DNA of 64,000 bases from an uncultured Bacilli bacterium (GTDB lineage Bacteria; Bacillota_I; Bacilli_A; RF39; UBA660): positions 766,859-830,858 of the forward strand of contig OZ006981.1 of the NCBI GenBank assembly GCA_963931185.1, in the 5' to 3' direction. The notes below the pieces were generated by a model that ran no database searches, was not told where the DNA came from, and saw only the letters and a program-made list of their open reading frames with translations. The position numbers and the translations under genes are program-made. Positions 1-55,487 of the stretch are shown here, in pieces; position 1 is the first letter of the stretch; each line of letters begins with the position of its first letter.

Positions 1-478
1 GATTTAAAGATTTGTGTTGAGATTTATACCAAGAGTTAAGAGTAGAAGAAACAGCATCAAATAAAAGATTAAGTCTAGAACGTTTTTCTAAAAAAAGAGG
101 CCAAAGAATATCAGAAATAGTAAAAACAAGATGTCTGTGGGTTGAAGAAATTAATTTTGATTCGATAGATAAAGAACGTTGTTTAGAATATTTAATACCA
201 CAAGAGTTACAGAATCTAGATTTGCAAGTATGATAAACAAATTTATAATTACCACAACTAGGACATTTAAAAACAGAAGTACCAAGTTTAGGAGAATTAC
301 AAATCATCGTTCTTTTGACATCCCTAAAAACAACAGGTCTAATATATAAATTTTTATATTCAGCAAATTTAACAAAATTATCCCAATAAGAAATAAAAAC
401 ATCTTTTAGCTTGAAATGTTTATTTTTAGGATATTTAATTCTTAACTCTTTTTCGGTTTTAAAAGTATCTATTATCAT
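1..478 (-). mobile_element. IS91-family (Y2/HUH rolling-circle) transposase, N-terminal about 159 aa; the ORF runs off the window start
   Basis: Manual minus-strand translation from ATG at 478: MIIDTFKTEKELRIKYPKNKHFKLKDVFISYWDNFVKFAEYKNLYIRPVVFRDVKRTMICNSPKLGTSVFKCPSCGNYKFVYHTCKSRFCNSCGIKYSKQRSLSIESKLISSTHRHLVFTISDILWPLFLEKRSRLNLLFDAVSSTLNSWYKSQHKSLN... It has an N-terminal CxxC...C.SR.C.SCG zinc-binding motif followed by an H.HLVFT motif. This arrangement resembles IS91-family transposase N-termini. The ORF is not in the supplied track because it is truncated. Confidence 0.45.
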
Positions 479-549
479 AATAATATTATATTACAAATTA
501 AAACAACCTCAAAGAGGTTGGCGAATGAAATTTATTTCATTCTTTTTTT
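478..549. repeat. Hairpin repeat element, copy 1: AACCTCAAAGAGGTT stem-loop, then GAATGAAATTTATTTCATTC stem-loop, then a T-run. A second copy lies at 35468..35552.
   Basis: Two perfect hairpins plus T7 seen directly. About 70 bp shares roughly 80% identity with 35468..35552. Confidence 0.6.
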
Positions 550-751
550 ATATAATAAAAAAATACTAAACTAGCTTAATATCATTATAAAAAAATCACT
601 AATTACTAAAAACAATATTCAAAATAGTTACTACAACAATGATAGTTAATTTGAAATGTCTTTAATTAATAAATTTAAAATTCATAGCTTATTGATAACG
701 GACCAAGAAATATAATTTGATTTATATAATTTTTTATTTAAAAAAATTTAT

Positions 752-800
752 AAAGTATTGTGAAGAAAATAAAAGTATTGTAAATTTTAAATAATACAAT
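752..800 (+). promoter_or_regulatory. Direct-repeat regulatory module upstream of yabP: AAAGTATTGT at 752-761 and 772-781. The second repeat overlaps a TTGTAA -35-like hexamer.
   Basis: A near-identical 50-bp module recurs at 53382..53436 upstream of the prepilin-like gene. A possible sigma-E-like promoter (ATATT ... CATAAAGT) follows at 819..846. Confidence 0.45.
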
Positions 801-861
801 ATTAAAAATAAAAGTATGTATATTTATTAAGAAAAAACATAAAGTCTACTAGGAGGACTTT

Positions 862-1161
862 ATGGAAAAAACAGATGATACAATTAATAACTATAATCAT
901 GGAATAACATTAGTAGAAAGAAAAAGTTTAATTGTTACAGGCGTAAAGAAAATAGAAAATTTTGATGATGAAGAATTTTTGATGGAAACAAGCATGGGTT
1001 TTTTAGTAGTTAAAGGAGAAGACCTAGAATTAATAAAGTTAGATACAATGAAAGGAAATGTATCAATAAAAGGAACTATTAAAGGACTTACTTATATTGA
1101 AGATATTAAAAATAAAGATAAAAATAAAGAACAAGGTATATTTAATAGATTATTTAAATAA
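862..1161 (+). CDS. yabP: Sporulation protein YabP
   Basis: About 100 aa with a YabP-like pattern (ITLVERKSLIVTGVKKIENFDDEEFLMETSMGFLVVKGEDL...). A GGAGG RBS precedes it, and it is followed by a yabQ-like membrane ORF. Confidence 0.6.
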   Translation: MEKTDDTINNYNHGITLVERKSLIVTGVKKIENFDDEEFLMETSMGFLVVKGEDLELIKLDTMKGNVSIKGTIKGLTYIEDIKNKDKNKEQGIFNRLFK

Positions 1162-1454
1162 TGAATTTAGAGATACAAATACAATCGTTAATATCTTCAT
1201 TTGTATATGGACTATATCTTTCATTAATATACAATATATTTTATAAATATTTATATCACAAAAAAATAATTATAAAAGTAATATCCAATTTCTTATTTAC
1301 TATAATAAATGTATCAGCTTATTTTTTTATATTAATGTTAATAAATAAAGGAAGTATTCATATTTATTTTTTAATTTCTCTTATAGGTGGTTTTTTAGTA
1401 GGTAATAAAACTACAAAAAAAATAAGAACAAAAGTAGTTGACAAAAAAATATAA
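1161..1454 (+). CDS. yabQ: Spore cortex biosynthesis protein YabQ-like small membrane protein
   Basis: 97 aa with 3 predicted TM segments. Its start overlaps the yabP stop, the conserved yabP-yabQ arrangement. Confidence 0.45.
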   Translation: MNLEIQIQSLISSFVYGLYLSLIYNIFYKYLYHKKIIIKVISNFLFTIINVSAYFFILMLINKGSIHIYFLISLIGGFLVGNKTTKKIRTKVVDKKI

Positions 1455-1494
1455 AAAATATATTATTAAATTAATAACTTTGATGAAGAAAAGT

Positions 1495-1745
1495 AATATT
1501 AACAAAGTTAAAGTGAGCTAAGGATAGTGAGAACTTAGTAATAGAGTTAATATGAAAGAACACTTCGGAGTTGTCTATCGAAAGGTTTCAAGTAGGTTAG
1601 ACCGGATTGTAATCCGTTACCATATTACTAGGTTTGTTAGAACTAAAAGTGATCATATAAGTATGATAATTTGGGTGGTACCGCGGATTTTCAGTTATTC
1701 GTCCCATTGTTGGGAAGAATAACTTTTTATTTTATTCTCTCAATT
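1495..1745 (+). promoter_or_regulatory. T-box riboswitch leader of asnB (specifier presumably Asn)
   Basis: Conserved T-box motif AATTTGGGTGGTACCGCGG at 1668-1686. A terminator hairpin AGTTATTC...GAATAACT plus T-run lies at 1702-1741. About 290 nt of untranslated leader precedes an aminoacyl-related biosynthetic gene. Confidence 0.75.
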
Positions 1746-1774
1746 TAACTGAGTAAAGAAAGAGAGGATTTTAT

Positions 1775-3358
1775 ATGTGTGGATTTATGGTATATACAAA
1801 AAAAGATATATCAAAAGAAAAACTAGAAAAGGAATTTAAAAAAATAAAACATCGTGGACCAGATATGACTAAAATAATCGAAAAAGATTCAAATACGTTT
1901 CTTTTTCATAGATTAGCAATAATGGGATTGGATGAAAAAGGAATGCAACCATTTGAAAAAAATAATAAGATAGTTGTATGTAATGGAGAATTATATGGTT
2001 TTCGAAAAGAAAAGAAAAATCTAATGGAAAAAGGATATACATTTGAAAGCGAAAGTGATTGTGAAATTTTAATACCTATGTATGAGACATATGGAATTGA
2101 AATGTTTAATAAACTAGATGCAGAATACGCACTGGTAATGTATGATGAAAAAAGCAAAAAAATAATTGCTGCCAGAGACCCAATTGGAATAAGACCAATG
2201 TTTTATGGATTTTCTAAAATAAGTGGTGAAATAATGTTTGCAAGTGAAGTAAAAGCAATAAATGATTTATGCAATGAAGTTAAGCCATTCCCACCTGGTT
2301 ATTTTTACATAAATGGAGTTTTTACTAAATATTATGATGCTACAGAAGTTCATAAAAGAAATAACGACAATTTGAATACTATTTTTAAAGAAATAAATAA
2401 AAAATTAACAAAAGCAGTTATAAAAAGACTTGACTCAGATGCTCCACTTGGTTTTTTATTAAGTGGGGGACTTGATTCTAGTTTAGTTTGCAGCATTGCA
2501 ACTAAGTATTTAAAAAAGCCTATAAGAACATTTTCCATTGGTATGGATAAAGATGCAATTGATTTAAAATATGCAAAACAAGTTGCAGAGTATATTGGTA
2601 GCAAACACACAGAAGTAATAATAACAAAAGAAGATATAAAAAAAGCCCTTGAAGAAGTTATTTATAAGCTAGAAACATGGGATATAACAACAATAAGAGC
2701 TTCAATTGGAATGTATTTATTATGTAAATGGATTAAGGAAAATACGGACATCAAGGTATTGCTAACAGGAGAAGTTAGTGATGAGTTATTTGGATATAAA
2801 TATACAGATTTTGCCCCAAATGCTAAAGAATTTCAAAAAGAAAGCAAAAAAAGAATACGAGAACTATATATGTATGATGTACTACGTGCTGATAGGTGTA
2901 TATCAGGAGTATCAATTGAAGCAAGAGTACCTTTTGCTGATTTAGAATTTGTTGACTATGTAATGGGAATTGATCCAGAAAAAAAATTAAATAAGTATAA
3001 TATGGGAAAATATTTATTAAGGCAAGCATTCAAAGACAACTATTTACCCGAAAACATTTTATACAGAGAAAAAGCTGCTTTTAGTGATGCAGTAGGACAC
3101 TCTTTAGTAGATGATTTAAAAGACATGGCTAATGAATTGTATAGTGATGATGATTATCAAATAAAGAAGGAAAAATATAAAAAACATATTCCATTTACAA
3201 AAGAGTCATTAATGTATAGAGAAATTTTTGAAAAATATTATACTAATAGAGATGATTTAATAATTGATTATTGGATGCCAAATAAAGAATGGGAAGGATG
3301 TAACGTTAATGATCCTAGTGCTAGAGTATTGTCAAATTATGGAGCAAGCGGAGAATAA
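1775..3358 (+). CDS. asnB: Asparagine synthase (glutamine-hydrolysing)
   Basis: N-terminal MCGF class-II glutamine amidotransferase nucleophile and the SGGLDSS PP-loop motif; 527 aa. Confidence 0.9.
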   Translation: MCGFMVYTKKDISKEKLEKEFKKIKHRGPDMTKIIEKDSNTFLFHRLAIMGLDEKGMQPFEKNNKIVVCNGELYGFRKEKKNLMEKGYTFESESDCEILIPMYETYGIEMFNKLDAEYALVMYDEKSKKIIAARDPIGIRPMFYGFSKISGEIMFASEVKAINDLCNEVKPFPPGYFYINGVFTKYYDATEVHKRNNDNLNTIFKEINKKLTKAVIKRLDSDAPLGFLLSGGLDSSLVCSIATKYLKKPIRTFSIGMDKDAIDLKYAKQVAEYIGSKHTEVIITKEDIKKALEEVIYKLETWDITTIRASIGMYLLCKWIKENTDIKVLLTGEVSDELFGYKYTDFAPNAKEFQKESKKRIRELYMYDVLRADRCISGVSIEARVPFADLEFVDYVMGIDPEKKLNKYNMGKYLLRQAFKDNYLPENILYREKAAFSDAVGHSLVDDLKDMANELYSDDDYQIKKEKYKKHIPFTKESLMYREIFEKYYTNRDDLIIDYWMPNKEWEGCNVNDPSARVLSNYGASGE

Positions 3359-24656: not shown

Positions 24657-24872
24657 ATGAAAAAAGGAATACATCCAGAATACAAAAAAGCAACAGTTAT
24701 ATGTGCATGTGGTGAAACTTTTGAAGTAGAATCAACAAAAGATGTTATTAACGTTGAAGTATGTTCTAAATGTCATCCATTCTATACTAATAAACAATCT
24801 AGAAAATCTCATACAGGTAGAGTAGATAAGTTTAATAAAAAGTATGGATTTACAACAGAAGAAGCAAAATAA
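24657..24872 (+). CDS. rpmE: 50S ribosomal protein L31
   Basis: [24 protein letters not shown]...CSKCHPFYT. Confidence 0.9.
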
Positions 24873-24875
24873 TAT

Positions 24876-24900
24876 ACCTATATTTGATAGGTATTTTTTT
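24876..24900 (+). terminator. Rho-independent terminator after rpmE
   Basis: TACCTAT-attt-GATAGGTA hairpin plus T9. Confidence 0.7.
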
Positions 24901-24971
24901 TTGAAAAAATTAGTAGAAATATTGTTCTTTTTTTTAATATGTGCTAATATAAAATAAAGAAGGAGGAAAGT

Positions 24972-25571
24972 ATGAAGAAGTTTAAGGTAAATGAAAATTT
25001 ACTAGCATTATTAATGTTTGCAGCTATGTTTGCAGGATGGCAATATTTAATTATTGTTACAGCATTTATTTGGGTATTTTGTGAGGCAGGAAAAAGCTTA
25101 AAAAATTTAACAATTAAAATTATTGCTTTATATGGAGCATGTGCATTAGTATTGCTTGGATGGGATGTAATTAACCAAGGAATTACAACATTATTTGGAG
25201 GGTTAAGAAAATTCTTCGAAATGTTAGTATCTTGGGGAGTTAGCAAAGATCTAGTTAATGGATATGACGATTATTTCTATATTCCAATTTGCGTAAAAGT
25301 ATTTGAAATATTAGGTGAAGTTGTTACATTCATTATATTAGTAGTTAAATTTAGATTTATTCTTTCTGTAATTTCTAATAAAGAAATGAAGGGTGTATTC
25401 TTCCCAGTTCAAGGATTACTTGATAAAATAGTAACATTTGCTAATAATAATTTCTATGAAGATGATAAAGCTAGTAAAGAAACTTCAAGTAAAGGTAAAT
25501 TTTGTCCGAAATGTGGAGAAAAAATAGAAGAGAATGCTAGTTTCTGTACTTCATGTGGAAATAAATTTTAA
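24972..25571 (+). CDS. Membrane protein with C-terminal zinc-ribbon (hypothetical)
   Basis: Four predicted TM segments and a C-terminal CPKCG...CTSCG ribbon. Confidence 0.5.
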   Translation: MKKFKVNENLLALLMFAAMFAGWQYLIIVTAFIWVFCEAGKSLKNLTIKIIALYGACALVLLGWDVINQGITTLFGGLRKFFEMLVSWGVSKDLVNGYDDYFYIPICVKVFEILGEVVTFIILVVKFRFILSVISNKEMKGVFFPVQGLLDKIVTFANNNFYEDDKASKETSSKGKFCPKCGEKIEENASFCTSCGNKF

Positions 25572-25573
25572 TT

Positions 25574-25600
25574 TCTAAAATAAAACGGCTTAAGCCGTTT
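25574..25600 (+). terminator. Rho-independent terminator
   Basis: AAACGGCTTAAGCCGTTTTTT, a perfect hairpin plus T-run. Confidence 0.8.
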
Positions 25601-26353
25601 TTTATATTTATAAGAAAAGTGCATGGAAATAAAAATAGATAATAGATATATGATGATTAAATATTATATTTATATCTATACTAAAAAGTTATAATGAGAA
25701 ATTTAATCTTGAATTATTTAAATTTAATAATTACAAAGCTTCGATATGTTTTAATTTGTAATTACACATATAATTAGAATGATAAGTAATATTATTTAAT
25801 ATTTTTTGTTGTCAATCATAATGTGAAAAAAAGTTATATATCATATTTTAATTGAAAAAAAAGATAAATTATCATATAATGATTATATAAAATAAAAAGG
25901 AGGAAAATATAAGAAATAAAAAAATAAATGTTTGAGAAACTTAATGGGCTAAAAGTGTATTTCTATTTTATAAATAATAACTATATTGCGATAACAAAAA
26001 CATATAAGCAAAGTAAAAAAATAAAATAAATTTAGAAAACTATCTATATAGCAAAAAGAAGTATTGTATTTTATTTTGAAAAGTTAAGTTAGTATAAGTT
26101 CAAAAATTTTCTTTTTTATAAAAAGATAAATTATTAAAATAGTTTATAAATATTATATTTAATTTTTTTACTAAAGATGTGTTATTAATTAAGTATCTGT
26201 TTTATTTTATTTGATAAATATTTTATTTAATATTAAAATACTTACCAATGCTATATGATTATTTTAATTTATTAATGTATTTACTTTTTGTATGAAAAAT
26301 TAAATTAATTAAAAATAAAGCTATGTTAAAAATCAAAAAATAAAGGAGTTAAT

Positions 26354-26644
26354 ATGGAATTAAAAGAAGAAGAATTAGAAAGAATATTTGCGGGTAATTC
26401 ACAAGATATAAGTGAAAAAATTGCAATCGATAATCCAAATCTATTTAGAAATAGACAAATGGAAGAATTAAAAGAAGAAGAATTAGAAAAAATATTTGCG
26501 GGTAATTCACAAGGTATGAGCGAAAAAATTGCAATCGATAATCCAAATTTATTTAGAGATGAACAAATAGAAGAATTAAGAGAGACAATAGAAAGTTTAT
26601 TTAATGAGGAAAAATCGCATGATGACGCACCAAAGATCAGATAA
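26354..26644 (+). CDS. Small acidic protein with an internal 2x about 36-aa tandem repeat (hypothetical)
   Basis: The repeat unit is (M)EELKEEELE(R/K)IFAGNSQ..SEKIAIDNPNLFR. A GGAG RBS precedes it. It is isolated inside about 2 kb of non-coding AT-rich DNA. Confidence 0.45.
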   Translation: MELKEEELERIFAGNSQDISEKIAIDNPNLFRNRQMEELKEEELEKIFAGNSQGMSEKIAIDNPNLFRDEQIEELRETIESLFNEEKSHDDAPKIR

Positions 26645-29598: not shown

Positions 29599-29832
29599 AT
29601 TTTTTTTATATTTATTAATGAGCATAATAGTATTTTGGTCTATGGATTCACTAAATATAAATGGAATGTTTAAAAAAAATAAAATATATCAAGCAAGGTG
29701 TTTTTATTATTTAATAGCATTATCTTTAATTTATTTAACAACTAATTTTGTTTATGATATTTATTTAAATTTTTTATAAAAATAATGTATATAATCACTT
29801 AATTAGAAAAAAATACTAATGAGGTGAATTAT

Positions 29833-30462
29833 ATGAAGAAAAAATTAGTATTAAAACCATTTGTATTGCCGACTTTATATATTTTAATGGTTATTGCATT
29901 AATGACAATGTCTACAACTTTAATATATAAAGAAAAAGAAGAAGATGATGATTTAACATATGTTTCTGATAGTATAATTGATAATGGTATACCAGTAGTA
30001 AATGATAATCAAATAATTATTCTAAAACCATTTACAAGTGAAAGTGTAACAGTAACATCAGGATATTATAATTATCAAGCAGAAGCAACGAATCAAGAAA
30101 CTTCAATCGTAAAATATGAAAACACATATTTACAAAATTCTGGAGTTACATATTCTTCAACAGAGGAATTTGATGTAATCAGTATAATGGATGGTAAAGT
30201 TACAAAAGTATATAGTAATGATCTGTTAGGAAATATTGTTGAAATTACACATGATAAAAATTTTGTCAGTGTATATCAAATGCTAAACGATATTCCTAAA
30301 AATTTACAAGTAGGAACTAAAGTTACACGTGGTGAAATAATTGCCAAAAGTGGAACATCAAAACTAGCACCAGAAAATTACAATTTGCATTTTGAACTTA
30401 TGAAAGAAGGAAGTCTTGTAGATCCTAATAATTATATTGGAAAAGATTTTAAAGAATTATAA
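29833..30462 (+). CDS. SpoIIQ-like membrane protein with a degenerate LytM (M23) domain
   Basis: N-terminal TM segment. In the C-terminal M23 fold the HxH motif reads NLHFE, so the first His is replaced. It lies immediately upstream of spoIIID-mreB, the conserved clostridial spoIIQ position. Confidence 0.5.
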   Translation: MKKKLVLKPFVLPTLYILMVIALMTMSTTLIYKEKEEDDDLTYVSDSIIDNGIPVVNDNQIIILKPFTSESVTVTSGYYNYQAEATNQETSIVKYENTYLQNSGVTYSSTEEFDVISIMDGKVTKVYSNDLLGNIVEITHDKNFVSVYQMLNDIPKNLQVGTKVTRGEIIAKSGTSKLAPENYNLHFELMKEGSLVDPNNYIGKDFKEL

Positions 30463-33738: not shown

Positions 33739-35020
33739 TGTAATTGGTTCAATAATTCAAAGTTTAACAGTAGTGCTTTGTGCTAAATCAATTTTATTAT
33801 ACAATAACAGAAAAAAAATGTTGACAATAAATGATTTGCTTTTCCTTATTTTTCTGTTTGTGCCTATTTCTTTAATTTATAGTAGTAATTATAATGTAAT
33901 AAGTCCTATTTTGTTTTTTACAGTAATTATATTTTGCTTGTTTTTTATATATAAAATTTCATTTTTAACATCGTTTTTATTTTCAGGAATCTTTATGATA
34001 ATTTTGGTTTTATCAGATTTAATAGTATCTATAATCTTTGTTGGATTCTTAAGTATTCAAACAATAAGAACAGAAAATTTTTACATAATATTAACAAATT
34101 TATTAGTTGGATTAATAGAGGTCGGGATTTTTTATATAAATGGATTTAAAAACAAAATAGTAGATATAATTTTAGAAACTGCAAAACATAAAAGTTTAGA
34201 ATTAATAACATTTATAATTTTACTAATTTTTGCTTTGAGCATTGGCATTTATATTTTGTTTGAAAATTATTATTTGAATAGAACTTTTATAATTGGAATA
34301 TTAGGAATTGTTATATTTTTAATTTTGTCCATTATATTTTTAAAAGAAAAATATGACAAAAATCTTTTAACAATTAAATATGATCAATTGTTTGAATATG
34401 TGCAGACTTTTGAGGAATGGATGGATAATGAAAATGTAAATATTCATGAATCAAAGAATCAATTAGCTGCATTACGTGCTATAATCAAAAATAATAAAGA
34501 AGCTATTCAATATATTGACAATATAATAAAAGATGAAATTGATTTAGAAAGTAAAAATATTCAAAAATTAAGAAACATTCCCAAAGGAGGATTAAAAGGA
34601 CTTTTATATTATAAAATAATATTTTCCGAGAAAAATAACATAGTTTTGTATATAGATATATCAAATAAAGTCGGAGATAAATTAGCCAAGTTAAATATTG
34701 AAGAAAATAAAATGCTTTGCAGATTGGTTGGGATTTTTTTTGATAACGCTATAGAGGCTGCTAAAGAGTCGGAAAAGAGAATGATTTCATGTGAAATTTA
34801 CAGGAATGATAAAGATATTATAATAACCATATCAAATACTTATGCAGGAAAATTAGAGTTAAACAAAGTAAGTGAAAAAGGATATTCAACCAAAGGGAAA
34901 AATAGAGGTAATGGTCTTTATTTAGCAAATAAAATAGCAAAAAAATCTGATATATTTTTTTTGGAAAACAGGATAATTAATGATTTTTATATTCAAAAAA
35001 TAATAATAAAAAAGATATAA
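33719..35020 (+). CDS. agrC: AgrC-like sensor histidine kinase (polytopic sensor + HATPase_c_5)
   Basis: Six to seven N-terminal TM helices and a C-terminal GHKL ATP-lid (NTYAGK...GKNRGNGLYLANKIA). The track ORF starts at TTG 33680. The likelier start is GTG 33719, preceded by a GAAGG RBS. Confidence 0.7.
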   Translation: MSSLIGNVIGSIIQSLTVVLCAKSILLYNNRKKMLTINDLLFLIFLFVPISLIYSSNYNVISPILFFTVIIFCLFFIYKISFLTSFLFSGIFMIILVLSDLIVSIIFVGFLSIQTIRTENFYIILTNLLVGLIEVGIFYINGFKNKIVDIILETAKHKSLELITFIILLIFALSIGIYILFENYYLNRTFIIGILGIVIFLILSIIFLKEKYDKNLLTIKYDQLFEYVQTFEEWMDNENVNIHESKNQLAALRAIIKNNKEAIQYIDNIIKDEIDLESKNIQKLRNIPKGGLKGLLYYKIIFSEKNNIVLYIDISNKVGDKLAKLNIEENKMLCRLVGIFFDNAIEAAKESEKRMISCEIYRNDKDIIITISNTYAGKLELNKVSEKGYSTKGKNRGNGLYLANKIAKKSDIFFLENRIINDFYIQKIIIKKI

Positions 35021-35467
35021 ATTTATATCTTTTTTATTTATAAGAAAATTATGTTTTTTTTGCACAAATTAAAAAATAATAGTTATTAATTTATTACACA
35101 AAGAATAAATTTTCATATTTTGAGAGACTTTAATTGGAAATGACCTATTACTTTAAATAAAAGTAAATAAATATTAGAATTGAAAGATAGATCATATCAA
35201 AAGTATGAAGAATATAAATAAAACTTAAATGAATTATAATTTATATTTCATATTTTTATTAATGTTTAATAGTAATAGAGTTAATATTAAATAAATATTG
35301 TAATTTTATCCTTTTTTAAAAGAGTGTCTAAGTTTTGCCAATAGTAAAAACATTATGTTTATACGTGCATCTAAAAATTTATTTCATGTTTTTAAACATT
35401 TGTTTAATATTAAAGTTAATTTTTCTATTGTTAACTTTGTCTTTAATTTTAATAAAATCTGTATTAT

Positions 35468-35552
35468 TTTTAATACATATAATAATAAATATATTATAAA
35501 TTAAAATAAACCAGCCTCAAAGAGGTTGGCAAATAAAATTGATTTTGTTATT
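35468..35552. repeat. Hairpin repeat element, copy 2 (ACCAGCCTCAAAGAGGTTGGC stem-loop). It acts as a bidirectional terminator between the convergent agrC and agrD.
   Basis: About 80% identical over roughly 70 bp to 478..549. A/T runs flank the hairpin on both sides. Confidence 0.55.
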
Positions 35553-35555
35553 TTT

Positions 35556-35678
35556 CTAGTCTATTAAATTTTTTGGCGCTCTTGGTTCATCTACTAAAAG
35601 TACAATGCATCCCATACTTGCAGCACCACTTGCTAATACAGCAATTGCAGTTAATAAGCTTGCTACTTTTTTCTTCAT
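35556..35678 (-). CDS. agrD: AgrD-like autoinducing-peptide precursor (40 aa). It is absent from the supplied ORF track.
   Basis: Manual minus-strand translation: MKKKVASLLTAIAVLASGAASMGCIVLLVDEPRAPKNLID. It has an amphipathic N-leader, a single Cys in a hydrophobic core, and a charged DEP..PK.L tail resembling the S. aureus DEVEVPKEL recognition motif. A GGAGG RBS sits 8 nt upstream, and the gene is immediately 3' of agrB. Confidence 0.7.
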   Translation of the reverse strand: MKKKVASLLTAIAVLASGAASMGCIVLLVDEPRAPKNLID

Positions 35679-37501: not shown

Positions 37502-39994
37502 ATGAATATTTTTAAAAGATTATTCGATCATGAATACAAAGAATTAAAGAGATTTTCAATTTTGGCAGATAAAGTAGAAGCATTAGACGAGGAATATCAA
37601 AAACTATCTGATTATGAATTACAAGCTAAAACTGATGAATTTAAAAATAGATTAAAAGATGGAGAAACTCTAGAAGATATTTTACCTGAAGCATTTGCTA
37701 CTGTTAGAGAAGCCGCATATAGAGTAATTGGTTTAAAACCATTTTATGTACAAATTTTAGGAGCAATAGCATTACATTTCGGGAATATAGCAGAAATGAA
37801 AACTGGTGAAGGTAAAACTTTAGTTGCTACAATGCCAGCATATTTAAATGCACTAACTGGTAATGGAGTACATATAATAACTGTTAATGAATATTTGGCA
37901 GAACGTGATAGCAATTGGATGGGAAGTATTCATCGCTTTTTAGGGTTAACTGTAGGCACAAATTTAAGAAGTCTTACACCAAAAGAAAAAAAAGAACAAT
38001 ATGCGTGTGATATTTTATATTCAACAAATAATGAGCTAGGTTTTGATTATTTAAGAGATAACATGGTAGTAAAAAAAGAAAACAGAGTACAACGAGGTCT
38101 TAATTTTGTAATAATAGATGAAGCAGACTCTGTTTTGATAGATGAAGCTAGAACTCCCCTTATAATATCTGGTGGTGAATTAAAAAGTGCTTCATTATAT
38201 ACGGATGCTGATTTATTTGTTAAATCATTGAAAAAAGAAAAAGATTATTTATATGATGAGAAAACTAAAGGCGTTACATTAACTGAAGAAGGAGTAAAAA
38301 AAGCTGAAAAAAACTTTAAAGTAGATAATCTTTATGATATTGAACAAACGGCTACTGTTCATTATATAAATCAAGCTCTAAAAGCAAACTATGGAATGAG
38401 ACGTGATGTTGATTATGTAGTACAAGACGGAGAAATAATAATTGTCGATCAGTTTACTGGGCGCCTTATGAAAGGACGTGCATTTAGTGATGGACTACAT
38501 CAAGCAATAGAAGCTAAAGAGGGAGTAAAAATACAGCAAGAAACAAAGACTTTAGCAACAATTACATTTCAAAATTTATTTAGAATGTACAAAAAAATAT
38601 CTGGTATGACAGGAACTGCGAAGACAGAAGAAGAAGAATTTAGAAATATATATAATATGTATGTAATATGTATTCCTACTAATAAAGAAATCATAAGAGT
38701 AGACGCATCTGATTTAATATACTCAACTCAGGCTGGTAAATATAAAGCATTGATTGAAGAAATAGAAGAAAGACATAAAAAAGGACAACCAGTTTTAGTA
38801 GGAACAATAGCAATAGAGACAAACGAATTAATAAGTTCTCTACTTAAAAAAAGAAAAATACCACATGAGGTATTAAATGCTAAAAACCATGCTCGTGAAG
38901 CTGAAATTATTGCAAAAGCTGGTGAAAAAGGAGCGGTTACTATAGCTACTAATATGGCAGGACGTGGAACTGATATCAAGTTAAGCGAAGAAACAAAAGT
39001 TTTAGGAGGACTTTGCGTTTTAGGAACTGAAAGACATGAATCACGACGTATTGATAATCAATTGCGTGGAAGATCTGGTAGACAAGGAGATCCTGGATTT
39101 ACTCAATTTTATGTTTCTATGGAAGATGAATTAATGGTACGCTTTGGAAGCGATAGAATAAAAAGAATGATGCAAACACTTGGATTACGTGAAGATCAAC
39201 CAATACAAAGTAAAACCTTTTCTAAAGCAATATCAACAGCACAAACACGTGTCGAAGGTAATAACTTTGATATAAGAAAACAATTATTACAATATGATGA
39301 TGTAATGAATAATCAAAGAGAAATAATGTATCAAAAAAGAAATGAGATTTTAGACAATGATTCAATTCATGATTCAATATTAGAATCAATAAAAAATAAT
39401 ATTACAGATTTAGTTAAGTCTCACATTTATCCAGAAGGATACTTGACTAAGGAAGATATAAAAGATATTGTTAAAAATGTTAATGAAAATTTATTACAAA
39501 ATGATATTAATGCTAACGATTTATTAGATAAAAAGGAAGAAGAAATAATAGAATGTATATATGAAAAGATAGTTAATGAATATGAAAAGAAAATTGCAAT
39601 AGTACCAAAAGAAATAAGTGATGAATTTGAAAAAGTTATAATGTTAAACGTAATTGATAAGTATTGGACTGAACATATAAACACAATGTCACATTTACGC
39701 GAAGGAATTCACTTGAGAAGTTATGGACAAACAGATCCTTTGAGAGCTTATACAGTAGAAGGTTTTGAATTGTTTGATACAATGATGCAAAAAATTGATA
39801 AAGAAGTTACAATGTTTTTAATACGTTCAGAAATAAAACAAAATATTGAAAGAAAAGAAACTAATAAAAATAAAATTGCAAATGATGGAAAAGAGCATGC
39901 AAAACAAGAACCAAAAAAATCACAAAAAATTGGAAGAAATGATCCTTGTCCATGTGGCTCAGGGAAGAAATATAAACAATGTTGTGGTAAATAG
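37502..39994 (+). CDS. secA: Preprotein translocase ATPase SecA
   Basis: 830 aa with a Walker A motif (MKTGEGKT), DEAD-like motor, and a C-terminal zinc finger ([15 protein letters not shown]). Confidence 0.95.
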
Positions 39995-40133
39995 CGGTGA
40001 GTATTGGGTTTAAGAGGATTTTGTCCACGTAAAAAACTCCAAAAAAAGGCTATTTGTCCACATTTTGTTTCCAAAATTGAGAAAAATGAAACCAAAATAG
40101 TGTAAAAATCTTTTGAAAACAAAAAAGTTAGCA
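39953..40133 (+). repeat. Direct repeat, copy A: the last 43 bp of secA plus a downstream 70-bp terminator-containing segment
   Basis: Identical 43-mer TGTGGCTCAGGGAAGAAATATAAACAATGTTGTGGTAAATAGC at 39953-39995 and 41455-41497. A 70-bp segment at 40064-40133 is about 93% identical to 41555-41623. Confidence 0.8.
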
Positions 40134-41076: not shown

Positions 41077-41454
41077 GAAGAATATTAGTTCTTCTTTTTT
41101 TAATAACTTTTTAATAAAAAAGAATATTGCTAATATACATGGTATACCAAATATATTTTTATGTAATACAAATATAAATGTTGAAAACGTAGTAAAATAT
41201 TTATGTGATGTTTTTTCAACTAACAATTATAAGAAAATTAAATATGAAGTGATTTTAAATAAAAATGTGCTATAATAGATTACGTAAACGGATGCACACA
41301 ATGTTTTCATTTTGTTTCCAAATTACAAGAAATAAATAGTAATCATAGTACTATAAATACCACAAATATTTTTATTACCTGTGCCACAAAGCCTTGAAAT
41401 ACCAGTAATTACGTAAATAACATAAATACTATAAATACTTGGATTTCTTGAACT

Positions 41455-41623
41455 TGTGGCTCAGGGAAGAAATATAAACAATGTTGTGGTAAATAGCATA
41501 TAAAATAAATAATTATGAGAAATTAAAAAATCAAAAAATGTGTAAATTAGTCAATTTTGTTTCAAAAATAGGAAGAATGAAACCAAAATAGTGTAAAAAT
41601 CTTTTGAAAACAAAAAATTAGCA
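41455..41623 (+). repeat. Direct repeat, copy B (partial secA 3' end of 14 codons plus stop, then the terminator region)
   Basis: See copy A. An upstream in-frame stop shows this copy is not part of a gene. Confidence 0.8.
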
Positions 41624-48160: not shown

Positions 48161-48252
48161 ATATGCACATCAAAAAAGTGCAAATGATCTTTGAAAACTG
48201 AGCAAAACGTCAATTACATTAAGTCAGGAAAAAAATAAAATAAATCAAACTT

Positions 48253-49822
<1,570 letters not shown>

Positions 49823-50051
49823 AAGGAGTAAAATTCCTGTATCTGACTTAATAAACGTTTTGCTTGGTTTTGAGAGATCATTTGATTTCTCAAATAGTTC
49901 TTTGAAAACTAGATAATGTGTGTTATTTGCTTTACAACGAGCAAAGTAAATAACAATATAATTGTATTTATTAAGTGTACAATTATTAAGATCTCATCAA
50001 ATTAGGATATATAAATATCAAACAAATGGTGGTTAAATTGCTAAGGGCGCA

Positions 50052-52950
<2,899 letters not shown>

Positions 52951-53017
52951 TTTGTTTTTTTGATTAGATCATGCACATTATCTAAGTTTTCAGAGAACTA
53001 TTGTTAATTGTTATGTT

Positions 53018-53122
53018 TATTGGTGACAATAGCTAAGAGGATACACCTGTTCCCATCCCGAACACAGAAGTTAAGCTCTTAAACGCCGACGATAGTGTAT
53101 GCGAAAATAGGTAGTTGCCAAT
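53018..53122 (+). rRNA. rrf: 5S ribosomal RNA (short, about 104 nt)
   Basis: ...GGTGACAATAGCTAAGAGGATACACCTGTTCCCATCCCGAACACAGAAGTTAAGCTCTTAAACGCCGA... The 3' end is approximate. Confidence 0.8.
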
Positions 53123-53381
53123 ATTTTTTTTTGCAAAAAAATTCATTAATATATGAATTTTTTTTATTTATAAGGAAGTGCGTTTGAGCATACAAATAAA
53201 AAAATGTGATAGAAGTTAAATTATCACGCAATAAATAAACCTACTTATTATGAGAGGTTTTAATTGGAAATGATAGGCCATCACAATAAGGGCATTTTAT
53301 CTCAAAAGACTTTTTAGCATTAATAAATTTTAAAAAAACAAGACGTTCTTAAAAATTAGTAGATAATAAAAACATTTTATA

Positions 53382-53436
53382 AAAGTATTGTGAAAAAAAT
53401 AAAAGTATTGTAAACTTTAAATATAAATAATAATAC
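53382..53436 (+). promoter_or_regulatory. Direct-repeat regulatory module plus a sigma-A-like promoter upstream of the prepilin-like gene
   Basis: AAAGTATTGT at 53382-53391 and 53402-53411. TTGTAA-17-TAATAC at 53408-53436. It is near-identical to 752..800. Confidence 0.5.
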
Positions 53437-53450
53437 TAGGAGTGAATTAT

Positions 53451-55286
53451 ATGAAGAATAAAAAAGGATTTACTTTAATAGAATTATTAGCAGTAATAAT
53501 AATATTAGGAATATTAATGATAATAGCAATACCAGCAGTAACAGAGTATATATCATCATCAAGAAAGAATGCCTATATAACAACAGCATCAAGATATATA
53601 GATGGAGTAAGAAACAAGATAAATGCAGCAGAAATACCGGTCTATGATAAAGAAGCAACTTATTATATACCAGGAAGTTGTGTATCAATGGAAAAAGGTG
53701 GAAATAGTCCATATGGAGACTGGAAAGAGTATTATGTAGTAGTAACATATGATGGAACAGGATATGACTATTATTGGACAAGTAGAGATGAAACAAACAC
53801 AGGAATATATTTAACATATCAAGATTTATTAGATGTTGATAGAATAGAGAATAATGTAACAAGTATCTCTACAAATATTGGTGTAGGAGATAGAGAAAAG
53901 ATATTATTATTAAAGGACAGTTGTAGTATAAATGATGCCGAAGAATTAATAGCAACAAGTAATATTCCAGAAAAAGGAACAAGTGATGGAAGTGAAACAG
54001 AAGAACCAGGTAATATAACATATAAAGAAGAAATATTAAATGGAACAGATCCAAAGTTAGAAGATTCATTAATAGCAGTAACAATAGAAGATGATGGAAC
54101 AGTAAAGAAAGCAGATACAACTACTAAGTGGTATAGTTATGAAGAAAAAAGATGGGCAAATGCCGTAATATTAAAAGATGAAAGTAAGAGTTATAATAAT
54201 GGAGAAGTAATACCAGAAGAAGAAATAGAGAGTTATTTTGTATGGATACCGAAGTATAGTTATAAGTTATGGGATTTAGGAAATTATACAGATGATACAG
54301 CAGTAGATACAAGTAAAGTACATTCAATAGATATAAGATTTGGAACAACCAATACAAGTGATAGTGTAGAAGGAGAATGTACAACACCGAAAGTATCAGG
54401 AGAAAGTGGAAACTGTGAAGTAGGAGATTATATGACCCATCCAGCATTCTTAGCCTTTAATACGACAGGAATGTGGGTAGGAAAGTTTGAAACAGGATAT
54501 GATGGTGCAACAAGTGAAAGGGAAGCGAAAAAAGATACAACAGAAGTAGATAAAATAATAGTAAAACCAAATGTCTACAGTTGGAGATATATTCAATTAG
54601 TCAATTCATTTACAATAAGTTATAATTACCAAAGAGAATTAGATTCTCATATGATGAAGAATACAGAATGGGGAGCAGTAGCCTATTTATCACATTCTAT
54701 TTATGGAATAAATAGTGAAATGAGGATTAATAACTATTCTGAACTAAAAACAGGATATGCAGCAACAACAGAAGAGGGAAGTAGTAGTACAACAGAAGTC
54801 GCAATGTGGAATACTCCTACAGGATATTTAGCAAGTACAACAGGAAATATAACAGGAATATATGATATGTCAGGAGGAGCAGAAGAATATGTAATGGGAG
54901 TAATGAAAGATGCAAATGGCAATTTAATGTCAGGTTGGGATTCTACTTGGAATTCAGGATTTAATGGGACATTAATGGATGGGAGTAGTTTTACAAATGG
55001 AATAGATTTTCCAGAGTCAAAATATTATGATGTTTATAATTATAGTACAAGTGATACTGATTATTCACGAAGAATATTAGGAGATGCAACAGGAGAGATG
55101 GGACCATTTCAAAGTGATATATCGTCATGGTATAGTAATGGTGCACGTTTTCTTAAACCTGACATCCCTTGGTTCTTACGTGGTGGCCACTATTTCAGTA
55201 ATCTTAGATCTGGAGAGTTCTATTTCTACAGCAACCATGGGCATGTTTTCGATATCATTTCCTTCCGTTTGGTCTTGAGTGTATAG
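53451..55286 (+). CDS. Prepilin-type N-terminal cleavage/methylation domain protein with a large extracellular region and an FGE/SUMF1-like C-terminal domain
   Basis: Class III signal MKNKKG|FTLIELLAVIIILGILMIIAIPAV, the type IV pilin motif. The C-terminus carries GIYDMSGGAEEYV and WFLRGGHYFSN, which resemble the FGE-sulfatase-family GxYDMxGNVWEW and RGGSW motifs. Confidence 0.6.
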   Translation: MKNKKGFTLIELLAVIIILGILMIIAIPAVTEYISSSRKNAYITTASRYIDGVRNKINAAEIPVYDKEATYYIPGSCVSMEKGGNSPYGDWKEYYVVVTYDGTGYDYYWTSRDETNTGIYLTYQDLLDVDRIENNVTSISTNIGVGDREKILLLKDSCSINDAEELIATSNIPEKGTSDGSETEEPGNITYKEEILNGTDPKLEDSLIAVTIEDDGTVKKADTTTKWYSYEEKRWANAVILKDESKSYNNGEVIPEEEIESYFVWIPKYSYKLWDLGNYTDDTAVDTSKVHSIDIRFGTTNTSDSVEGECTTPKVSGESGNCEVGDYMTHPAFLAFNTTGMWVGKFETGYDGATSEREAKKDTTEVDKIIVKPNVYSWRYIQLVNSFTISYNYQRELDSHMMKNTEWGAVAYLSHSIYGINSEMRINNYSELKTGYAATTEEGSSSTTEVAMWNTPTGYLASTTGNITGIYDMSGGAEEYVMGVMKDANGNLMSGWDSTWNSGFNGTLMDGSSFTNGIDFPESKYYDVYNYSTSDTDYSRRILGDATGEMGPFQSDISSWYSNGARFLKPDIPWFLRGGHYFSNLRSGEFYFYSNHGHVFDIISFRLVLSV

Positions 55287-55487
55287 TCGTAATACTTAAC
55301 CATGATATTTGTTGTTTGATACATGAACAAAGTATTAATAAATACAAATTTTATATTAAGAAATATTTTAATTATGTCAATTGCAAAAAAGCAAATGACA
55401 TTTTTTTTGCAGTAAATTTTATGTAATATTTTAATAAATAGTTGAATTAAACAATTTATATTTGCTATAATATTTTTGGTGATAAGG

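Follow-up and report, generated by a model that had tools for sequence, protein, structure and literature searches.

Why should two unrelated genes, the sporulation operon yabPQ and a gene for a large pilin-like protein, be preceded by almost the same block of sequence when they lie more than 50 kb apart in the 64,000-nt stretch of DNA analysed here (the window)? The initial annotation had read the sharing as the exact reuse of a promoter module, which suggested to it co-regulation or, failing that, recent promoter transplantation. The features on which our analysis bears are as follows (DR, direct repeat).

2-478, minus strand: N-terminal part of an IS91-family transposase (NCBIfam NF033538, E 2.4e-28), which runs off the window.
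708-793, plus strand: putative solo cassette 5' end upstream of yabP, made up of a 5' flank, DR1 (752-764, with TTGTGA at 758-763), DR2 (772-784) and the -10-like TAAATT (781-786).
778-815, plus strand: junction and "tail" TTGTAAATTTTAAATAATACAATATTAAAAATAAAAGT, of which 778-793 overlaps the block.
818-846, plus strand: predicted native sigmaE-type promoter of yabPQ (GTATATTT at 818-825, 11 nt, ACATAAAGTC at 837-846).
862-1454, plus strand: yabP (862-1161) and yabQ (1161-1454), matching Pfam YabP and Spore_YabQ; a T-box leader and then asnB lie downstream.
25850-25930, plus strand: decayed relic of a cassette 5' end (...ATAATGATTATATAAAATAAAAAGGAGGAAAATATAAGAAATAAAAAA), with promoter, Shine-Dalgarno sequence and mutated start.
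48252-53123: rRNA operon.
53382-53394, plus strand: DR1 of the cassette promoter block, AAAGTATTGTGAA, with the -35-like TTGTGA at 53388-53393, the TTG being invariant in 7/7 copies.
53402-53416, plus strand: DR2, AAAGTATTGTAAA (53402-53414), and the -10-like TAAACT (53411-53416), 17 nt after TTGTGA.
53417-53450, plus strand: conserved leader, 92-100% identical among cassette copies, with the Shine-Dalgarno sequence AGGAG at 53438-53442.
53451-55286, plus strand: gene for a 611-aa protein with a type IV prepilin N-terminus (MKNKKG/FTLIELL; Pfam N_methyl); tsaE-tsaB-rimI-tsaD come after it.
55287-55409, plus strand: cassette 3' UTR and terminator-like hairpin as read from the sequence (ATGTCAATTGC-loop-GCAAATGACAT at about 55374-55401, then a T run).

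The resemblance between the two upstream regions is real, but it is a near-identity and not the exact reuse first proposed. Positions 752-793 and 53382-53423 form an ungapped 42-nt match with 40/42 identities (95%), and inclusion of the 5' TTTAT, which requires a 1-nt indel (TTTATAAAGT versus TTTATAAAAGT), extends the block to 47 nt. When the two regions were aligned, as the initial annotation had proposed, gapped blastn matched 740-837 to 53369-53462 with 77 bits and 80.8% identity across 99 aligned columns, whereas the best non-self match in 30 dinucleotide-preserving shuffles of the window reached at most 44.6 bits. A chance match in AT-rich (26.8% G+C) intergenic DNA, which the many 40- to 50-nt matches of 70-78% identity in the window would favour, is already refuted by this score and by the presence of the same block at homologous cassettes of other genomes. 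There are just four exact copies of the 13-mer AAAGTATTGTRAA in the 64 kb, two per block, with starts at 752/772 and 53382/53402, that is, 20 bp from start to start in both; no other pair of TATTGT cores at 19-21 bp spacing, and no other plus-strand pair of 13-mers (up to 3 mismatches, 19-21 bp spacing), was found within the window. The same ribosome-binding context had also been claimed for the two genes. Its sequence TACTAGGAG is indeed present in the window only at 847-855 and 53434-53442, but this sharing is only marginally beyond chance (expectation 0.23; two matches reached in 2/100 shuffles) and, since block-less yabP orthologues already have ACTAGGAGG or ATTAGGAGG, it is a weak coincidence of ribosome-binding sites that needs no block to explain it.

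The product of the gene at 53451-55286 carries a G/FTLxE prepilin motif, matches Pfam N_methyl with an E value of 2.4e-8 and scores above the cut-off of TIGR02532. Its matches to pilins are confined to the N-terminus (residues 1-57 for PDB pilins; residues 1-60 only for PDB and NCBIfam together), with no Pfam or PDB sequence match past residue 60, and the AlphaFold model of the 611-aa protein, built on a 37-sequence alignment, had a mean pLDDT of 37.9 and was unusable for the fold. We found the exact window product encoded on a 1.0-Mb contig together with two paralogues of 89% and 85% identity, so that the same genome holds at least three cassettes. One of the three follows the rrn operon, one is flanked by rpoC and rpsL and one by sigE and murG; all have the leader and, about 70 nt before the ATG, the block. 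Cassettes with the block were also found at three loci from related genomes, L007, L019 (a 471-aa variant) and L045 (71% protein identity), and altogether six loci, belonging to at least four species, show the same fixed spacing between block and cassette ATG.

Comparison of these copies indicates where the cassette begins. Identity to the window copy is 54-62% at positions -130 to -71, 74-97% over DR1-DR2, 92-100% across the leader and 96-98% over the gene's first 90 nt, homology among the copies starting just upstream of DR1. Every copy is placed after the terminator of the preceding core gene, and each would therefore need a promoter of its own within about 100 nt; given this placement and the start of homology at DR1, the block lies where the promoter of the cassette must be. 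The 3' UTR and terminator of the window cassette are homologous to those of the other copies. On sequence comparison, the cassette thus appears to consist of promoter block, leader, gene for a pilin-like variable protein of a diversity-generating retroelement (DGR), 3' UTR and terminator, and the block shared with yabP appears to be the promoter end of this multi-copy, hypervariable gene cassette. Cassettes linked to dcuC (L004, L018 and L044) have a different promoter with just one ATATTGTA unit.

The insertion sites seen were rrn, rpoC, sigE and dcuC, with one cassette per site, and strain-level variants at the same site encoded proteins of either 610-615 or 471-493 aa. The gene after the dcuC-linked cassette is yabP in L017/L018 and a clp ATPase gene in L044, which is from another species, suggesting genome rearrangement through recombination between cassette paralogues. 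A flank sequence may also travel with the cassettes: the non-coding stretch 35008-35350, after a gene ending at 35020, is 72% identical over 142 nt to 53136-53273, in the interval between the 5S rRNA gene and the pilin block, and further on it is 71% identical over 207 nt to L019 974-1179, upstream of the L019 cassette, so that sequence of this type appears to be cassette-associated. All that a metagenome scan with the pilin-like protein found were distant homologues of 33-55% identity, whose upstream regions were unrelated.

The variable region of the family lies at the 3' end. The L005 gene has its final 142 nt copied 353 nt downstream with 13 mismatches, 12 of the 13 at template adenines, and the template copy is followed by genes for bAvd and a reverse transcriptase (RVT_1). 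Measured against this template, 17/33 adenine sites were changed in L004 and 13/33 in L018 (non-adenine sites, 5/109), the differences in these homologues thus falling almost only at template adenines, as in a DGR target. The pilin-like gene of the window would therefore be a member of a DGR variable-protein family, with the last 140 nt or so of 53451-55286 as its variable region. Pilin-type and pilus-adhesin targets of DGRs have already been reported (PMC11661182; bioRxiv 10.1101/2024.11.15.621889). Like DGR genes with several targets per genome, the L005 homologue has a TR/VR pair, bAvd and a reverse transcriptase. The window copy differs from such systems in two ways: its adenine bias is weaker, with changes at 16/33 adenine sites and as many as 29/109 non-adenine sites (5/109 in L004), and it lacks the short 3' hairpin tttttccacNNgtggaaaaac, which every other copy has after the stop codon (55287-55330 compared with L002 4837-4880). 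In addition, no template-repeat copy of its variable region was found in the window or at loci L001-L003, and neither reverse transcriptase nor Avd is in the gene tables of L001-L003 or was seen among the annotated part of the window's ORFs. The window copy may be an inactive DGR target that is no longer diversified. The original description of a pilin gene coupled to a sporulation operon is thus right as to the prepilin N-terminus and yabPQ, but the gene belongs to a variable-protein cassette and is not a simple pilin.

To our knowledge, nothing is known of the promoters of such DGR targets. Within a cassette, this block would most likely serve as a sigmaA-type (housekeeping) promoter, with the -35 element TTGTGA in DR1, the -10 element TAAACT at the 3' edge of DR2 and a 17-nt spacer. 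Among seven aligned copies, the TTG of DR1, a T-A-x-A-x-T pattern at the edge of DR2 (TAAACT, TAGACT or TAAATT) and the 17-nt spacing are all invariant, and L003, which has lost most of DR1, nevertheless has a better -35 element, TTGATA. The pair TTGTGA-17-TAAACT agrees with the consensus at 8/12 positions, including A2 and T6, and so falls below the 9/12 threshold of the promoter scan. Transcription would start at about 53423, some 27 nt before the ATG, and the conserved Shine-Dalgarno sequence AGGAG would therefore lie inside the mRNA.

The initial annotation had instead assigned the -35 and -10 elements as TTGTAA-17-TAATAC. Both hexamers exist (53408-53413 and 53431-53436), but with this spacing only in the pilin copy; at yabP, TAATAC comes only 8 nt after TTGTAA, and the G of this -35 or the spacing is altered in L002, L007 and L019. 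As a promoter, the pair would match only 7/12 consensus positions, lack the final T of the -10 element and start transcription at about 53443, after the conserved AGGAG, and we do not retain it. That the active promoter is nevertheless another one, either TTGTAA-17-TAATAC, perhaps in the form of a forespore promoter GTAAA-17-AATACTA, or a minus-strand TTTACA-16-CACAAT giving antisense or divergent transcription, is unlikely, although both versions have something to recommend them: AATACTA fits 6/7 positions of the sigmaG -10 consensus CAWAMTA (PMC3416734), and the minus-strand pair was reported by the promoter scan in both copies (53414-53387 and 784-757) with 9/12 consensus positions. The minus-strand pair, however, loses the A at -11 of its -10 element in L003 and key bases of its -35 element in L002, L019 and L045, and upstream of it there is no conserved product, the gap between block and terminator being 25-75 nt in L007, L003 and L002. 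It may be added that this pair outscores every plus-strand pair and that the direct repeat supplies both of its hexamers.

Sporulation sigma factors were considered for the block and rejected. For sigmaF or sigmaG, the -10-like AATACTA is present but the -35-like GTATT is 22 nt away, and GTAAA-17-AATACTA would again start the mRNA after the Shine-Dalgarno sequence; for sigmaE or sigmaK, the CATA motif is absent, none being found between 53340 and 53451. No Rfam match at E<=1 was found in 53120-53470 or 540-880, and the predicted RNA fold of 86 nt was no better than those of shuffled sequences (z = -0.74). A simple sigmaA promoter does not require a perfect 13-nt direct repeat; the repeat could have arisen when 20 bp were duplicated locally to give the promoter as it now stands, or it could be an operator for a protein.

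At yabP, the block stands beside a promoter of another kind. In B. subtilis, yabP and yabQ are sigmaE-dependent mother-cell genes (PMC3533761), and the B. subtilis sigmaE consensus, TYATATTT / KCATANANTN (PMC3416734), is matched by window 818-846 at 7/8 and 6/7 of the specified positions. This element, which resembles the B. subtilis yabPQ promoter in both consensus and position, is separate from the block and lies 25 nt downstream of it. It is found at the same position and with the same spacing in L013, L017 and L021, despite unrelated sequence further upstream, suggesting that yabPQ keeps a separate, conserved sigmaE-type promoter, adjoining its ribosome-binding site, in all the orthologous loci compared.

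The region upstream of this promoter differs among lineages. In L013-16 (YabP 94% identical to that of the window) and L021-24 (86%), the genes are in the usual order ksgA-yabG-veg-spoVG-yabP and the block is absent. In L017/L018 (91%), a cassette lies directly upstream of yabP, and TTTGTAAATTTTAAATAATGTAATATTAAAAATAAAAGTATGTATATTT, following the cassette terminator, corresponds to window 777-826; in L019, a strain with an identical YabP protein, the cassette directly upstream of yabP is one with the DR block. Block-less L013 is therefore closer to the window in YabP than cassette-bearing L017 is. L043 (95%) equals L018 minus positions 960-2905: what remains of the cassette, namely the promoter, the leader and about 10 codons, runs directly into the post-terminator sequence before yabP, and the solo promoter left there is of the other (non-DR) type. 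L042, which is from the window's species (99%), has veg-spoVG and a terminator and then a 99.3% match to window 543-2583, with 211 extra nt between spoVG and yabP that include a block identical to the window's; L013 has 37 nt where the window's species has these 211 nt (window 560-770). Since L042 retains veg-spoVG next to this 99.3% match, the IS91-like gene at 2-478 would mark a strain-specific rearrangement in which other sequence took the place of spoVG ahead of the yabP intergenic region. The 5' region of this IS91-like gene (470-559), including the hairpin AACCTCAAAGAGGTTGG, has a 79% identical copy at 35479-35568 with no transposase ORF beside it.

The sequence upstream of yabP in the window is a chimera of two parts of a cassette locus. 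On its 5' side, 708-823 matches the 5' flank of the L002 cassette and 716-802 that of L019 with 78-80% identity (728-802 aligning to L019 1273-1350). On its 3' side, 778-864 matches the sequence after the cassette terminator, with 92% identity in L019 and 84% in L043, this tail being found after the terminator and upstream of yabP in L017-L020 and L043. The 5'-flank match (708-802) and the post-terminator match (778-864) overlap in the 16-mer TTGTAAATTTTAAATA, at the variable position of which the solo and post-terminator copies have T, and the cassette copies have C or a further-diverged 16-mer. The chimeric junction, the intact state in L019 and the independent deletion in L043 together point to the yabP copy being a solo relic. 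The post-terminator sequence of the window cassette itself resembles the tail upstream of yabP only weakly (68% over 75 nt) and was not used as evidence.

We therefore consider that the sharing probably reflects genome history, a cassette having lost its body beside yabP and left its promoter as a solo scar. Specifically, yabP would once have had a cassette immediately before it, an arrangement that sister lineages retain; the cassette body would have been lost, most simply by recombination between TTGTAAAYTTTAAATA in the promoter block and the same 16-mer after the terminator; and the outcome would be a solo promoter block fused to the sequence preceding yabP's own sigmaE promoter. From the homology, chimeric structure, allelic states and conservation observed, we infer the direction of this event. 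Of the possibilities raised at the outset, recent promoter transplantation is thus broadly borne out, the two genes being neighbours in relatives and the block belonging to the cassette, with the qualification that the block at yabP would derive from the cassette, left there as the scar of a deletion. Both 13-mers of the solo copy are still perfect; this lack of decay could mean that the copy is recent or that selection has kept it. A second relic of this kind lies at 25850-25930, where it has decayed, and relics of this cassette would therefore be common. The close relative L007, whose positions 1-754 share 99% identity with window 24855-25609, carries in the equivalent intergenic region a complete cassette, block included, downstream of a gene for a 199-aa protein, and the site therefore looks like a recurrent hot spot for cassettes.

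The transfer could have run the other way, with a block that was old at yabP being captured by a neighbouring cassette and then spread. The chimera is symmetric in this respect, insertion of a cassette body into an existing block giving the same picture as deletion, and the different promoter of the dcuC-linked cassettes L004, L018 and L044, with its one ATATTGTA unit, means that the block type could be secondary within the family. However, the lineages with the ancestral spoVG-yabP order have no block, and the 211-nt segment that holds it in the window's species counts as an insertion when set against L013. Any similarity between the block and the ancestral upstream region was sought in L013 and did not rise above composition: window 816-861 is 81% identical to L013, whereas 771-815 has only 26/45 identities, a value reached by 1163/20000 shuffles (p about 0.06). 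The fixed distance of the block from the ATG at the six cassette loci in at least four species also argues for a cassette origin, and we regard the reverse transfer as improbable.

Under the preferred reading, a deletion scar, co-regulation need not enter into the explanation, and as the reason for the sharing it was not supported: two yabP lineages are block-less, a separate sigmaE-type promoter is present in all orthologues, and none of the window's other genes has the double repeat. Any co-regulation would be no more than a by-product, in that the relic could add read-through transcription to yabPQ. We scanned one genome per species for 185,579 species for the exact double 13-mer with a 6- to 8-nt gap; of the seven matches, one was relevant, being another cassette (L007), and six were in unrelated AT-rich taxa. 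The same scan of viral contigs gave only simple tandem repeats in giant-virus bins.

A stronger form of the co-regulation argument would take the 13-mers, 20 bp apart and thus on the same face of the helix, as sites for a dedicated transcription factor of the pilin-like paralogues, with yabPQ co-opted. The repeat is perfect in both window copies, the ATTGT core keeps its 20-bp period even in the 71% identical L045 cassette, the solo copy is undecayed and identical in the second strain L042, and, of 56 gene starts, the one that ranks second in its match to the pilin upstream region belongs to another sporulation gene, spoIIQ. Against such a factor, the double repeat is absent at yabP in L013-16 and L021-24, with a terminator there instead in L017/18; it occurs at no other gene of the window, and the species-wide scan added just the one cassette. 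Moreover, DR1 of L003 is degenerate save for the TTG of the -35 element, parallel changes in the two repeats are absent, the repeat overlaps the proposed -35 and -10 elements in place of lying upstream of them, and no candidate regulator was found. We consider a dedicated factor doubtful, and slightly more doubtful still the specific version in which the repeat is an operator coordinating all DGR pilin-like paralogues (for example, with only some of them on) and its yabPQ copy has been co-opted; if true, spore-envelope genes would be tied to the same signal as the pilin-like paralogues.

The match upstream of the spoIIQ-like gene (29833-30462) lies at 29760-29845 and scores 38, compared with 40 for yabP and a median of 19 (sd 5.7) over the 56 gene starts. 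It has in common AATACTA..GTGAATTATATGAAGAA across the start codon and contains a sigmaF-like GTATA-14-GAAAAAAATA; a further cassette relic or a widespread translation-start context could account for it.

The binding sites of LytTR regulators (AgrA, ComE, VirR) are 9-bp direct repeats of [TA][AC][CA]GTTN[AG][TG] with a 12- to 13-nt spacer, upstream of a weak -35 element. The block resembles them in having two direct repeats about two helical turns apart near a promoter, but differs in its period (20 bp versus 21-22), in its core (GTA, in AGTATTG, versus GTT) and in its position, the proximal repeat ending 36 nt before the ATG and therefore overlapping the promoter, unlike the upstream LytTR sites. 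A LytTR-type operator was accordingly rejected on period, core and position, and Spo0A-box, ComK-box and CodY/CcpA motifs did not fit the block.

The case may be compared with the putative mobile promoters described in a survey of promoter reuse in prokaryotes (Matus-Garcia, Nijveen and van Passel 2012; commentary PMC3575422), which are pairs of stretches, 50 nt or more in length and 80% or more identical, that stand before unrelated coding sequences. With 80.8% identity over 99 columns, and with YabP and the pilin-like protein unrelated, the pair in the window falls within that definition, although part of the match is nearer the ATG than the survey's window of -150 to -50. That survey left the origin of such pairs unexplained, whereas here a route would be traceable through a duplicating cassette: a cassette with its own promoter lands by a gene and is deleted between short repeats, and the promoter stays. 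Unrelated genes may in this way come to share a promoter without selection for co-regulation; since cassette deletion would suffice to leave a promoter behind, shared upstream blocks should be read as regulons with caution. The more notable result is the cassette family itself. Its members encode type-IV-pilin-like surface proteins diversified by a DGR, and its host is an uncultured gut Firmicute that has a small genome and forms spores. Each genome has several copies, which are apparently gained and lost at hot spots between core genes.

Two further repeats were noted in the window. Positions 39945-40133 and 41447-41623 form a 190-nt duplication of 78% identity, comprising a C-terminus with a SEC-C-type zinc motif and the sequence downstream of it. 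In addition, 26357-26572 is a tandem duplication of a 108-nt unit, 92% identical, inside an ORF of 96 aa (26354-26644).
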